Source of the DNA: Escherichia phage 933W
Direction: 5' to 3' (one strand)
Length of the DNA stretch: 61,670 bases
Sequence record: AF125520
Program-made: the position numbers
Part shown: one piece after another, positions 39,001 to 42,000 of the stretch
How the letters are laid out: every line of letters begins with the position of its first letter
Numbering within the stretch: the stretch's first letter is position 1

Positions 39001-42000
39001 AAGGCGAACGAGGAGAAGCCGGACCACAGGGACCGATGGGAGCACGAGGTGAGCGTGGGGAGACTGGCCCCCGAGGTGAACCTGGTCCTGCAGGTCCGAG
39101 AGGCGAACGAGGAGAGACCGGACCTCAGGGACCTCGTGGAGAGCCAGGTCCGGCAGGCAGCGCTGCAAATGTGGCTGATGCAACGACGGCACAGAAGGGA
39201 ATTGTGCAGTTAAGCAGCGCAACGGACAGTGATGATGAAACGAAGGCTGCCACCCCGAAAGCGGTGAAAGCGGCAATGGATGTGGCAAATGAAGCGAAAA
39301 CAAAGGCAGAAGAGGCTGCAGCAGGAGGTGGTGTTCCCGGTCCGAAAGGAGATAAAGGGGACACGGGGCCAGCAGGTCCGGCTGGGCCGAAGGGTGATAA
39401 GGGAGAGCGCGGTGACACCGGCCCTGTCGGGGCAACCGGCGAACGGGGACCGGCAGGTGATGCTGGTCCGGCAGGCCCGCAGGGGCCGAAAGGTGACAGG
39501 GGAGAGCGGGGAGAGACCGGTCTGACGGGAAATGCAGGTCCACAGGGTCCAAAGGGAGATACCGGTGCGGCAGGCCCGGCAGGCCCACAGGGACCGAAAG
39601 GAGAAACAGGTGCGGCAGGCCCGGTGGGGGCGACCGGACCTCAGGGGCCGAAGGGCGACCCGGGGGAGACGCAAATACGGTTCCGTCTGGGGCCGGGAAA
39701 CATTATTGAGACAAACAGCCATGGCTGGTTCCCGGATACAGATGGCGCACTCATCACCGGACTGACCTTTCTTGACCCCAAAGATGCCACACGGGTTCAG
39801 GGTTTTTTTCAGCATTTGCAGGTCAGGTTTGGTGACGGGCCGTGGCAGGATGTCAAGGGGCTGGATGAAGTGGGCAGTGATACAGGCAGAACAGGAGAAT
39901 GACATGAATATTTTGAGAAAGCTTATGCAGAGTCTGTGCGGTTGCGGAAAGCATGATGACTGTGAAAACGGGCAGTCGCTTACAGCACAACTGCGACTGG
40001 GACCGGCAGACATTCTGGAGTCAGATGAGAATGGCATTATTCCGGAGCAGGACAGGGTAATCACACAGGTGGTGATACTGGATGCAGATAAAAAGCAGAT
40101 ACAGTGTGTGGTAAGACCGCTGCAAATCCTGCGTGCTGACGGGACGTGGGAAAATATTGGCGGGATGAAATAGCCGACAGCTTCACAAAAACCGGAGCCC
40201 GGCTCCGGTTTTTGTTGTCATGTATAGGGGGGGGTTATTAGAGAGTGAAGTAATAAACATGTTAATACGATGGAGTGAAGGATGCCGTGTAATTCTGGTT
40301 CAAGAGTTTTTTATGCCGGAAAATCGCAGGATTATTCTGGATAGTAAAGAATCCTGGTTAATAATCTGTGATAGTCAGTTGGGCCATTTAATGCGCAGTA
40401 TGTATCAGGGACGCCGTTTTATTCAGCTGAATCTGGAAAAATTGAAAGGGGTACATGATGTCGCCTTGCCAGTGAAATGGGAATTCACACGAAGACAGTG
40501 AATAGCTTTCTGTATACGGGAATGGCGAAAAATGGACTGTATGGTGTGAGTGTGAAACATCTTGCGTGTGCGGAGTGATGCTTCTCGTTGCTACAGCGGC
40601 AATGATAATGCAGTGAAAAAAGGGGAGCAATATGCTCCCCCAAACCGAAAGAAAATTGCAATAATCAATGAAGTTATTTAGTCATCATCAGAATGTCATG
40701 CAAGGCATTTTGTTTCAGTGATGCCGATCGCGATTTTAGCGAATTCCATCATAAATCCCCTGATTTTTAAGCCTGAAGCAGTCAAAGGAATTTCTATGCC
40801 CTATATCGATATCACCACGATGCGTGGGATGATGCCGCGCGTTGTGACATCCATGCTGCCCGAGCATTCCGCTGTACTGGCGGAGGACTGCCATTTCCGG
40901 TTTGGTGTTATTACACCAGAACGTCAGATATCCGGGGTTGAGAAAACATTCACAATTAAGCCAAAAACAATTTTTCATTACCGTGACGATTTCTGGTTTG
41001 CATGGCCGGATGTGGTGGATGTGATCCGCAGTCCGATCGCTCAGGACCCCCACGGGCGTATTTACTACACTGACGGGCGTTTTCCTAAAGTGACGGATGC
41101 GACTATTGCCACAAAAGGGGACGGGAATCACCCGACATCATCGTATCGTCTGGGGATCCCCGCGCCGACGACAGCTCCTGTCTGTACTGTTCAGCAGGGC
41201 GGTGATGTTTCTGACGATAACCCGAATGATGATGAAACCCGGTTTTATACGGAAACCTTTGTCTCAGATTATGGTGAAGAAGGTCCGCCAGGTCCGGCGT
41301 CTCTGGAGGTAACACTCCGTACTCCGGGAACTGCGGTACAACTGACGCTGGCTCCGGTGCCATTGCAGAATGCCAGTATTAAACGTCGCCGGATTTATCG
41401 CTCTGCATCAGGTGGAGGGGAGGCGGATTTTTTACTTGTGGCTGAACTGGATGCATCCGTGCTCAGTTACACGGACAAAATACCGGCGAAAAACCTTGGG
41501 CCTTCCCTGGCGACATGGGATTACCTGCCGCCGCCAGAGAATATGACAGGCCTTTGCCTGATGGCTAACGGTATTGCCGCCGGGTTTGCCGGTAATGAAG
41601 TGATGTTTTCGGAAGCGTATCTGCCGTATGCATGGCCGGAAGTGAATCGTCACACGACGGCAGAAGATATTGTAGCTATCTGTCCGCTGGGAACGTCACT
41701 GGTGGTGGCGACAAAGGGGGAGCCTTATTTGTTCAGTGGGGTATCACCGTCCACAATTTCTGGTTCCAAAATCCCTTCAATGCAGGCGTGTCTGAGCAGG
41801 CGGAGTATGGTTGCGATGGAGGGTTTTGTGCTGTATGCAGGAACAAATGGCCTGGTGTCTGTTGATGCAAACGGTAATGTCGCGCTGGCGACGGAACAGA
41901 TTGTTTCACCGGAACAGTGGCAGAGTCAGTTTAATCCGGCCTCCATTGTGGCTTATCCCTGGCGTGGTGAATACATTGCCTGTTACACGAAACCGGATGG

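Follow-up and report, generated by a model that had tools for sequence, protein, structure and literature searches.

A probable leftward Hfq-binding small RNA gene at a tail gene junction of Stx2 phage 933W

An AT-rich island between two tail gene blocks

The DNA analysed here (61,670 nucleotides of Escherichia phage 933W, record AF125520; hereafter, the window) comes from a Stx2 phage of the 933W/Sp5 type. A preliminary description of it had pointed to about 500 bp of AT-rich sequence separating two tail gene blocks, and the base composition bears this out: positions 40214-40720 (507 bp) have a GC content of 0.412, compared with 0.494 in the window as a whole and 0.510 in the late region, where 3.8% of segments of equal size have a GC content this low. 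The genes on either side of the island reach 0.59 (tail fibre) and 0.51 (L0124). Between 39700 and 41300 the window is 100% identical to VT2-Sakai/Sp5, so that data obtained with strain Sakai are directly applicable to it (the coordinate in Sakai NC_002695.1 equals the window coordinate + 1,246,817, an offset checked on EcOnc53/24B_1). The junction contains the following features.

39904..40173, plus strand: L0122 / ECs1229, 89-aa tail-fibre C-terminal protein, last gene of the left tail block
40186..40213, both strands: bidirectional intrinsic terminator AAAAACCGGAGCCCGGCTCCGGTTTTTG (fold energy and strict census)
40220..40501, plus strand: L0123 / ECs1230, N-terminal fragment of ORF-156, 93 aa (phrog_6585 / phrog_2014)
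40477..40578, plus strand: C-terminal fragment of ORF-156 in a frame different from that of L0123, 33-aa ORF MGIHTKTVNSFLYTGMAKNGLYGVSVKHLACAE
40572..40616, plus strand: 3' stump of a small tail-anchored membrane-protein gene (phrog_9340), about 14 codons ending in GVMLLVATAAMIMQ and a stop codon (translations and blastn map)
40616..40641, minus strand: Rho-independent terminator with a 9-bp stem (6 G-C), a 3-nt loop and six U (fold and census)
40616..40725, minus strand: probable unannotated Hfq-binding sRNA, allele A (CRAC, CLASH and covariance model)
40726..40795, no strand: 70-nt non-coding block with the candidate sRNA promoter and the 5' UTR and Shine-Dalgarno sequence of L0124
40733..40738, minus strand: candidate -10 TAAAAT of the sRNA promoter (read from the sequence)
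40748-40753, minus strand: alternative candidate -10 TATGAT (likewise)
40796..42421, plus strand: L0124 / ECs1232, 541 aa, phrog_511 'internal virion protein'; opens the right tail block

In the left block, L0122 matches Pfam PF06820 (Phage_fiber_C; E = 5e-36) and phrog_576, in agreement with the RefSeq annotation. Directly adjoining the left edge of the island is the terminator at 40186-40213, which was missing from the preliminary description; it folds with -25.0 kcal/mol on the plus strand and -23.3 kcal/mol on the minus strand, is detected on both strands by our strict census and is kept 3' of tail-fibre genes across lambdoid prophages. It ends the tail-fibre unit and would also halt leftward read-through. 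In the right block, L0124 matches phrog_511 with E = 2e-279, and L0125 has tail-fibre family matches (phrog_496 and Pfam Phage_Tail_Tip). Judged from its homologues, the real start of L0124 is ATG 40796 and not GTG 40718: homologues down to 55% identity all start with MPYIDITTMR or MATIDITTMR at this ATG and diverge upstream of it, and PGAP also starts the gene at 40796.

A decayed cargo cassette left of the hairpin

Translations and alignments show the left part of the island (40220-40616) to be the remnant of a decayed cargo cassette composed of an ORF-156 gene and a small membrane-protein gene; it lies outside the RNA described below. The 93-aa ORF that had been seen at 40220..40501 is present and equals 933W L0123 and Sakai ECs1230; PGAP gives a 62-aa version starting at 40313. 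L0123 matches phrog_2014 (E = 3e-58) and phrog_6585 (E = 2e-29, profile positions 20-84 of 156), shares 56% identity with residues 25-87 of the intact 156-aa protein in the relative L005, and has a tblastn match to orf-156E of phage P-EibE. It falls short of a full-length ORF-156 protein of ~156 aa and is most likely a pseudogene, an internal deletion of ~112 nt in the blastn map putting the gene out of frame. The 33-aa ORF downstream matches the C-terminus of a 166-aa protein of GER2 (...EMGIHTKTVNTFLYTGMAKNGLYGVSVRRLVGA), and window positions 40459-40564 are 90.6% identical to positions 2236-2341 of L005. A helix-turn-helix suspected by eye in the ORF-156 C-terminus was discarded, with no match in Pfam or NCBIfam.

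The membrane-protein gene has lost its 5' two-thirds through a deletion of ~141 nt relative to L005 and the relative L009 (blastn map). Relatives carry an intact version of this gene (43/60 aa) that has a Shine-Dalgarno sequence and stops 1-6 nt short of the hairpin. The plus-strand 37/39-aa ORF at 40562/40568..40681 that some records annotate was rejected, being in the wrong frame relative to the homologous small protein and crossing the stem. Comparison with related phages, which had been suggested as a check on the island, shows that the slot holds intact adhesin/ORF-156/small-ORF or Cor cassettes in these phages. The proposal that the island is the scar of a lost insertion is therefore supported for 40220-40616, with its two ORF-156 fragments and the 3' stump of the membrane-protein gene.

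A terminator hairpin specific to the minus strand

The right end of the cassette remnant abuts a strong hairpin, earlier described as carrying a U-run on the minus strand only, a description that holds. The minus strand reads GGGGGAGCA-UAU-UGCUCCCCU and then UUUUUU (stem 40641-40621, U-run 40621-40616), with a fold energy of -16.1 kcal/mol for 40621-40641, whereas CAAACCGAAAG comes after the stem on the plus strand, leaving it without a U-run there. As in Hfq-dependent sRNAs, the stem is closely preceded by a U-rich stretch, UUUUCUUUCGGUUU. A strict terminator census, which required a perfect stem of 8 bp or more containing 5 or more G-C pairs, a loop of 3-8 and a T-rich tail, returned 7 canonical terminators in the 61.7-kb window and 0 in 20 first-order Markov resamples; among these 7 sites, the hairpin at 40616-40641 is the only one working on the minus strand alone. 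Its motif occurs once in the window, and its stem is unchanged in 14 of the 14 distinct relatives having the hairpin, with only the loop varying (U/C). A search of one genome per species yielded 11 exact-pattern matches in unrelated taxa (Bacteroidetes, Vibrio, Xanthomonas and others), which were dismissed as chance terminators and are uninformative on the spread of the hairpin.

The apparent absence of a convincing minus-strand gene to the right of the hairpin was also borne out: all plausible ORFs of at least 110 aa are on the plus strand until ~47.0 kb, and no plausible minus-strand protein gene was found in the 6 kb right of the hairpin. Three sets of minus-strand ORFs were ruled out, namely the 58-aa and 25-aa ORFs, which cross the terminator, the 80-aa ORF formerly named ECs1231, which begins in the hairpin loop, downstream of the termination point, and the ORF at 40736..41131, which is antisense within L0124.

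A minus-strand RNA bound by Hfq and associated with RNase E in Sakai

In the Hfq-CRAC data of Tree et al. 2014 (Table S1B), which we use as tabulated counts rather than read profiles, the interval ECs1231...ECs1232 ranks 27th among intergenic regions. Its 'sense' reads in the five samples number 81,206, 6,030, 70,478, 146,246 and 3,140, and its 'antisense' reads 0 in all five. We infer that 'sense' denotes the minus strand for this interval, because plus-strand spf, ssrA, cyaR, micA, chiX and StxS score antisense and minus-strand sroC, ryhB, oxyS and AsxR score sense. ECs1231, a dropped ORF, most likely corresponds to the ORF 40388..40630 on the minus strand, whose start lies within the hairpin loop, since the coordinates of the ECs1231 5' UTR are listed in descending order and 40388..40630 is the sole candidate ORF named in the protein collection; the CRAC interval would then correspond to positions 40631-40717. 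In three of the five samples, the read numbers agree in order of magnitude with those of the AsxR interval. RNase E CLASH reads (Waters et al. 2017) contain AAATGCCTTGCATGACATTCTGATGATGACTAAAT, corresponding to the minus strand from 40710 to 40676, with read starts at 40710 and 40709. A small leftward RNA, one of the possibilities raised earlier for the island, is thus supported by CRAC reads from the minus strand only, right of the hairpin, and by CLASH reads from the same strand.

Hfq-dependent sRNAs are expected to end in a Rho-independent terminator whose U-tail counts about six or more, as this RNA does, and to bind Hfq in vivo, which the published CRAC data record in five of five samples for the identical Sakai sequence. 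Our results suggest that the hairpin is probably the Rho-independent terminator of a small, unannotated leftward Hfq-binding RNA of the prophage trans-acting type.

RefSeq has no annotation at 40616..40725, the 2021 list of Stx2-phage sRNAs does not include the RNA, the supplements of the Sakai ribosome-profiling paper have no entry at the locus, and no account of it was found in the literature under ECs1231, Z1485, L0123 or sRNA104-110. It might be sRNA 104-107 or 110 of Gruber & Sperandio 2015; HnrS and PreS, considered as its identity, were rejected as belonging to other loci. That the RNA received no EcOnc name is most likely explained by the requirement that candidates be >100 nt from an annotated feature, given the spurious ORF nearby.

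Extent, promoter and fold of the RNA

The 3' end of the RNA lies at the U-run 40616-40621, and the CLASH reads put its 5' end at or beyond 40710; transcription probably starts at about 40725-40741, and the RNA would be roughly 95-125 nt long. Both candidate -10 hexamers fall in the 70-nt block 40726..40795, which is 98.6-100% identical between phages, their L0124 genes being 85-93% identical, and which also contains the L0124 Shine-Dalgarno sequence AAGGA (40785-40789). There is no recognisable -35 for the candidate sRNA promoter, and a promoter consensus scan of the minus strand found no site with at least 9 of 12 positions. Another promoter guess, TTGCAT-17-TAAATA (40703-40675), was ruled out because this sequence is already inside the CLASH reads.

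The RNA occurs in two alleles. Allele B folds into three hairpins with -39 kcal/mol (z = -5.2), and the fold of allele A is modestly better than shuffles (z = -2.5). Among 29 predicted pairs, five change on both sides yet still pair and four break in allele A; with two alleles only, covariation support is thin. Rfam 15 has no family at the gathering threshold or at E of 10 or below for the island, the best sub-threshold matches (RsaOG, 27.5 bits vs 50; DapZ, 22.5 vs 56) being chance-level and driven by the terminator. Our covariance model finds a single copy in the window (40613-40725, minus strand) and no diverged copy in the window or in the loci of more distant L0124 homologues.

Conservation across E. 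coli genomes and metagenomes

The RNA was found in 334 of 5,426 complete E. coli genomes, unannotated in every one. Allele A is carried by ~5% of the complete genomes, including O157:H7, and allele B by ~1%, including O104:H4; allele B makes up 19 of the 23 full-length metagenome contig matches. All 24 metagenome contigs with the 70-nt block have the adjacent sRNA, one match ending at a contig end, and the metagenome scan disclosed no third allele. Allele B is 95-99% identical between phages with L0124 at 88.8% and with unrelated left flanks; GER2 is one allele-B phage whose cassette is intact. Between the alleles, the RNA body is the least conserved segment, at 72% identity, which could reflect weak constraint rather than divergent seeds.

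A proposed trans-acting role and its precedents

We propose a leftward sRNA gene in the interval from the hairpin to the L0124 start, with its candidate promoter in the near-invariant 70-nt block. Expression of the RNA would take place in lysogens, whose rightward late operon is silent. The hairpin of its terminator, the U6 tail and the U-rich stretch preceding the stem would together form the usual Hfq-binding module, and the RNA would pair in trans with host RNAs, as other EHEC prophage Hfq sRNAs do. During lytic growth, Q-antiterminated PR' transcription would cross the gene in the opposite direction and should silence or titrate the RNA. Its CLASH chimeras comprise one unreplicated read with the MgrR seed region (dG -12.8 kcal/mol) and one with rRNA. 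The predicted MgrR duplex is marginally better than shuffles, and its core pairing, CUUGCAUG, is missing from allele B. Pairing with the MgrR seed would make the RNA a sponge or anti-sRNA. Within the phage genome, no convincing complementary target was found (19 complementary 10-mers vs 8 +/- 5 in shuffles).

AsxR (EcOnc02) and AgvB (EcOnc01) are prophage-encoded Hfq-binding anti-sRNAs of EHEC (Tree et al. 2014), and the single CLASH chimera with the core sRNA MgrR hints at a similar sponge role. Like AsxR (22984-23036 in 933W, minus strand), the RNA comes from the minus strand of a Stx prophage, where its gene converges on the late operon and occupies the downstream edge of a cargo ('moron') slot; both have an intrinsic terminator, are Hfq-crosslinked in lysogens with comparable read counts, and have an upstream -10 TAAAAT without a clear -35. 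By contrast, the two share no sequence similarity: the ~42-nt 3' region common to the AsxR family is missing from the RNA, and the Rfam AsxR model (RF02703) matches only 22984-23036, with nothing in 40100-40900 at E of 10 or below. They also differ in length (roughly 95-125 nt compared with 51-60 nt) and in site (the tail region compared with the PR' moron site). A second parallel in the same phage is EcOnc53 (sRNA108, the 24B_1 precursor), likewise a minus-strand Hfq-bound sRNA in the rightward late/tail region. It lies downstream of lom in Stx2 phages, ~5 kb further right (window ~45569-45621), and differs in sequence and position; unlike the RNA at 40616..40725, which the published lists lack, it has been named and studied.

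Alternative explanations

It is unlikely, in our view, that the RNA instead belongs to a cis-acting antisense or insulator unit that handles rightward RNA across the junction. Such a unit could block read-through from lysogen-expressed cargo (adhesin, Cor) into L0124-L0125, or its RNA could pair with the late mRNA of a superinfecting relative and lead to its cleavage, an exclusion like that by STnc6030 of the Salmonella prophage BTP1. Over ~110 nt directly preceding L0124, the late transcript is a perfect complement of the RNA. In relatives, the cargo cassettes run up to the hairpin, which lacks a U-run on the plus strand, so that their transcripts would continue into L0124; in more distant relatives this position is taken by a plus-strand terminator, which implies that a transcriptional boundary is wanted there. 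Two diverged alleles with a common promoter and terminator would also suit such a unit. STnc6030, an antisense RNA to the tailspike gene that acts in superinfection exclusion, is a precedent for lysogens making an antisense RNA directed at a tail gene. Both RNAs are expressed leftward in lysogens from within a cluster of tail genes of a temperate phage, and each is complementary to the late transcript. However, STnc6030 overlaps the tailspike coding sequence, whereas the 933W RNA overlaps an untranslated inter-gene stretch only; with either candidate promoter, this overlap stops 44 nt or more before the Shine-Dalgarno sequence of L0124 is reached, and no coding sequence falls within it. Furthermore, the cargo genes of 933W are dead, yet the RNA is unchanged in >260 genomes, and strong Hfq binding is typical of trans-acting sRNAs and unnecessary for a perfect duplex. 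The antisense regulator of tail genes raised earlier as a possibility is neither borne out nor contradicted by these data.

Carried further, the RNA would be an exclusion or incompatibility determinant with which lysogens cleave the late transcript of incoming or co-resident Stx phages just upstream of L0124-L0125, and its alleles, with their 72% identical bodies and shared promoter and terminator, would define two Stx-phage specificity groups; we find this specific role very doubtful.

Convergent type I toxin-antitoxin pairs with 3' overlap are exemplified by TxpA/RatA and BsrG/SR4 of Bacillus prophage-like elements, and a further variant holds that the RNA may have arisen as an antitoxin-like partner of the small tail-anchored membrane protein, left an orphan in 933W. 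As in these pairs, the gene for a hydrophobic 43-60-aa protein in relatives stops 1-6 nt short of the convergent RNA's terminator, with no terminator for its mRNA ahead of the RNA gene. The arrangement differs in several respects: in relatives with adhesin cassettes, the small gene comes last, after the adhesin and ORF-156 genes, and its upstream ATG overlaps the ORF-156 stop codon; in Cor-type cassettes, the small gene is frameshifted or altered while the RNA is still conserved; and 933W has no intact small toxin-like gene, only the last ~14 codons.

Returning to the hairpin itself, there is very little chance that it acts as a protective terminator only, stopping stray leftward transcription before the tail-fibre genes, with the Hfq-bound RNA as a functionless by-product. 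Spurious promoters are common in AT-rich, horizontally acquired DNA, and such promoters, or antisense promoters in the tail genes, could supply the transcription; Hfq binds any RNA ending in a terminator with a U-tail, no consensus promoter is present, and another minus-strand-capable terminator stands 430 bp further left. Against this reading, CRAC reads reach AsxR-like numbers in three of five samples, a 185-nt non-coding unit is conserved better than the adjacent protein gene, and the three-hairpin fold of allele B is markedly stable (z = -5.2). That the hairpin is purely a scar, a functionless relic of a lost leftward gene or a decayed cassette, is extremely improbable, for although the surrounding 400 bp consist of decayed genes, the hairpin and RNA body are intact in phages with two unrelated kinds of intact cassette, are transcribed and Hfq-bound in Sakai, and accompany no leftward protein gene in any relative.

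Implications for Stx2 phages

Three practical points concern annotation: ECs1231 is no gene, L0123 is most likely a pseudogene fragment, and L0124 should start at 40796. Stx2a phages of the 933W/Sp5 type are drivers of the most severe EHEC disease, and StxS, AsxR, EcOnc27 and 24B_1 already tie the prophage to toxin output, iron uptake, stress response and lysogeny. To these our analysis adds an abundant Hfq-bound RNA at 40616..40725 that published lists have omitted. A cis-acting RNA would be relevant to the way in which tail genes are shielded from cargo slots; an RNA titrating MgrR or other RNAs of the host would offer the toxin phage a further route to rewiring that host.

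A leftward terminator in an AT-rich island

The segment 39700-41300 is 100% identical in Stx2 converting phage I, VT2-Sakai (Sp5), Min27 and many other Traversvirus Stx phages. Older annotations place the following genes in and around it:

37965-39902, L0121, tail fibre
39904 (start) to 40173 (end), L0122
40220-40501, L0123
40718 or 40796 (start) to 42421 (end), L0124
42418-43686, L0125
44693-45427, lom

The Sakai RefSeq counterparts are ECs_1228, 1229, 1230 and 1232; ECs_1231 is no longer annotated. As the preliminary description held, 40214-40720 is an AT-rich island: its GC content (0.412; whole window 0.494, late region 0.510) falls in the lowest 3.8% of equal-sized late-region windows. 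This AT-richness looks exaggerated because the neighbouring stretch of L0121 (38500-39700) is GC-rich (0.62-0.70), with a strong A-over-T skew; in one record the L0121 protein is described as resembling collagen alpha 1(I).

On the minus strand, a hairpin at 40621-40641 (GGGGGAGCA-UAU-UGCUCCCCU, fold energy -16.1 kcal/mol) is followed by UUUUUU. The U-run had been described as confined to this strand, and the plus strand indeed carries an A-run ahead of the stem and none of the U-run after it. Strict criteria return seven canonical terminators in the whole window against none in 20 Markov resamples, and this hairpin is the only one of the seven acting on the minus strand alone. Minus-strand transcripts could use one other site, the bidirectional terminator that adjoins the island on the left (40186-40213), read in reverse. 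The earlier observation that no convincing minus-strand gene lies to the right also stands: over more than 6 kb rightward of the hairpin, every plausible protein gene is a plus-strand one. The sole sigma-70-like promoter match in 39000-42000 (TGGATA-16-AATAAT, 9/12, 40338-40365, plus strand) faces rightward within the L0123 remnant.

In distant relatives (L066, L070, L072 and L075; L0124 identity 55-60%), a plus-strand intrinsic terminator, GCCTCGCC-TTAAAAA-GCGGGGC-TTTTTTGTTTT, replaces the minus-strand hairpin some 40 nt ahead of the L0124 homologue (locus ~2440-2490). The position just upstream of L0124 is a transcription-unit boundary across all lineages.

Published reads reveal an Hfq-bound minus-strand RNA

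The Hfq-RNA crosslinking data of Tree et al. 2014 (PMC4104026) come from strain Sakai, and in their Table S1B the region 'ECs1231...ECs1232' ranks 27th among intergenic regions, with 81,206 / 6,030 / 70,478 / 146,246 / 3,140 sense reads and 0 antisense reads. Since the 'antisense' entries of that table include the plus-strand small RNAs (sRNAs) spf, ssrA, cyaR, micA, chiX and StxS, and the 'sense' entries the minus-strand sRNAs sroC, ryhB, oxyS and AsxR, these sense reads derive from the minus strand. In Waters et al. 2017 (PMC5286369), the RNase E CLASH tables contain a feature, 'ECs1231-1 5UTR', whose coordinates descend (1287527->1287493); its read, AAATGCCTTGCATGACATTCTGATGATGACTAAAT, matches the window minus strand exactly from 40710 to 40676. 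ECs1231 is therefore a minus-strand ORF. Among the candidate minus-strand ORFs, only an 80-aa ORF at 40388..40630 is named in the protein collection ('putative outer membrane protein', Xuzhou21), and equating it with ECs1231 places the CRAC interval at window 40631-40717. We rejected this ORF as a real gene and regard it as spurious because its start sits in the terminator loop, past the termination point. Sakai coordinates equal window coordinates plus 1,246,817, an offset checked with EcOnc53/24B_1; EcOnc53 thereby lands on a stem-loop right beside lom, in agreement with the literature:

45560-45625, minus strand, EcOnc53 / sRNA108 / 24B_1 precursor, long stem-loop right of lom, without an Rfam family

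Lysogens thus contain a minus-strand RNA, crosslinked to both Hfq and RNase E, upstream of a canonical minus-strand terminator, and the small leftward RNA suggested first in the preliminary description gains support from these published Hfq-CRAC and CLASH reads.

Anatomy of the RNA gene

The leftward RNA has the terminator as its 3' end. The sequence immediately before it, UUUUCUUUCGGUUU, is rich in U, a feature also of the module with which enterobacterial sRNAs bind Hfq. CLASH reads put the 5' end at or beyond 40710, which rules out an initial promoter guess at 40703-40675. Two candidate -10 hexamers were found:

40738-40733, minus strand, TAAAAT, predicted start ~40725-40728
40753-40748, minus strand, TATGAT, predicted start ~40741

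Both lack a good -35, and a consensus promoter scan gave no match on the minus strand here. With these hexamers setting the start and the U-run (40616-40621) the end, the RNA would measure roughly 95-125 nt. Both hexamers fall within a 70-nt non-coding block (40726-40795). Phages that share only 85-93% identity in L0124 match each other at 98.6-100% over this block, and a sharp mosaic boundary near 40718-40725 lies about where the RNA is expected to start.

Older records start L0124 (ECs1232) at GTG 40718 (567 aa), and homologues at ATG 40796 (541 aa). The ATG, preceded by a Shine-Dalgarno AAGGA (40785-40789), is the start codon in all homologues down to 55% identity, the sequences upstream differing among them, and in more distant relatives the 26-codon GTG extension shows no conservation as coding sequence. 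With L0124 starting at ATG 40796, the leftward RNA is antisense to untranslated sequence only.

Two alleles and their distribution

The RNA occurs as allele A (933W type) and allele B (GER2, POCJ13 and O104:H4 phages), which have the promoter block and terminator stem in common and a body only 72% identical. Allele B is 95-99% identical across phages with unrelated left cargo (54% identity) and an 88.8%-identical L0124, so that in these phages the non-coding unit is better kept than the neighbouring gene. It folds into three hairpins (-39 kcal/mol, z = -5.2), compared with -28.4 kcal/mol (z = -2.5) for allele A. RNAalifold found compensatory changes in 5 of 29 pairs and four pairs broken in allele A, a covariation signal that is weak because just two lineages are compared.

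The segment is present in 334 of 5,426 complete E. coli genomes (allele A 270, allele B 66) and in 167 phage records. All 24 metagenome contigs with the conserved block have the RNA adjoining it (19 allele B, four allele A, one match ended by the contig edge). With a covariance model, the window yields a single copy, and more distant loci bearing L0124 yield none. The promoter-to-terminator unit is conserved.

A decayed cargo cassette

Related phages fill the interval from the tail-fibre genes to L0124 with one or other of two cassettes:

Cassette 1 (L005, GER2): YadA/Eib-like adhesin gene, 156-166-aa ORF-156 gene (phrog_6585), 43-60-aa tail-anchored membrane-protein gene
Cassette 2 (L006, POCJ13): tail-fibre adhesin gene, Cor exclusion lipoprotein gene, small ORF

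This comparison with related phages, which the preliminary description had proposed, upholds its suggestion of a lost insertion for 40220-40616, where decayed ORF-156 and membrane-protein genes remain. Residues 25-87 of the 156-aa protein align with L0123 at 56% identity, a 33-aa ORF (40477-40578) in another frame corresponds to its C-terminus, just the last ~14 codons of the membrane-protein gene persist, and blastn against an intact cassette reveals two deletions (~112 and ~141 nt); 40220-40616 is therefore the scar of a cargo cassette. The 93-aa ORF noted earlier does exist at 40220..40501, and is most likely a pseudogene fragment.

In long-tailed lambdoid prophages, a ~94%-identical counterpart of the island's left part (40150-40459) recurs behind tail-fibre genes, with type III effector genes (NleG, EspJ) after it; short-tailed 933W has in common with them a module comprising the tail-fibre C-terminal gene, its bidirectional terminator and the 5' part of the ORF-156 remnant (L004 2001-2488). 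Genomes with any match have a median of three places for the 651-bp query, mostly the left part alone.

The ORF-156 family (L005 1882-2352; L009 1863-2363; window 40220-40578), which includes orf-156E of phage P-EibE, is found alongside Eib/YadA-type adhesin genes; neither Pfam nor NCBIfam gives a match for it. Its C-terminus, GIHTKTVNTFLYTGMAKNGL, looks by eye like a helix-turn-helix, which, if true, would make ORF-156 a candidate regulator of the adhesin.

Proposed action and alternatives

We propose that the leftward RNA is transcribed from a weak promoter of the -10 type within the conserved block while the late operon is silent, and that the RNA would bind Hfq via its 3' module and pair in trans with host RNAs, as other Hfq-bound EHEC prophage sRNAs do. 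Upon induction, Q-modified polymerase from PR' would cross the gene in the opposite direction and should disturb the promoter and titrate the RNA as a duplex. The sole hint of a partner is one unreplicated CLASH chimera with the MgrR seed region (listed dG -12.8 kcal/mol), with CUUGCAUG pairing with CAUGCAAG; hdeB forms 20 chimeras with the same MgrR segment, and the pairing is not present in allele B. We take MgrR as no more than a lead. A search for targets within the phage gave none convincing.

A cis-acting role is possible, by which the RNA might insulate tail genes from cargo read-through or, by analogy with STnc6030, act against superinfecting phages. The geometry fits, as does the plus-strand terminator at the same position in distant relatives, but such a role explains neither the strong Hfq binding nor why 933W, whose cargo genes are dead, has kept the RNA. 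In relatives, the small hydrophobic ORF opposite the convergent RNA may suggest a type I toxin-antitoxin system; however, this ORF comes last in its cassette (the stop codon of ORF-156 overlaps its upstream ATG), is not kept in Cor-type cassettes and is deleted in the window. The views that the element is only a terminator with the RNA as by-product, or purely a scar, lose weight in light of the read counts, the sequence conservation and the allele B fold.

An overlooked prophage sRNA

The leftward RNA is not in the 2021 table of Stx2-phage sRNAs. It is likewise missing from the RefSeq annotation, and no Rfam family matches it. Rfam matches elsewhere in the window (22777-23036; 58610-58784; 7899-7957; 61136-61224; 21120-21368) comprise STnc100 (overlapping EcOnc27), AsxR, sok antitoxin RNA, the lambda cIII thermoregulator, sRNA-Xcc1 and three tRNAs. 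Gruber and Sperandio reportedly numbered BP-933W sRNAs in 2015, including sRNA103, sRNA108 and sRNA110, and one of their numbers 104-107 could be this locus. Sy et al. 2020 required candidates to lie >100 nt from an annotated feature; the ECs1231-ECs1232 gap is 87 nt, which most likely explains why the RNA received no EcOnc number, and the spurious ECs1231 annotation is the likely reason that the Hfq peak was never named an sRNA.

The leftward RNA is a new, unnamed prophage-encoded Hfq-binding sRNA, which we would liken to the AsxR/AgvB/EcOnc class in mode of working, although it lies outside that sequence family. While this kind of element is already known, the finding adds an abundant, conserved and overlooked sRNA to the medically foremost type of Stx phage.
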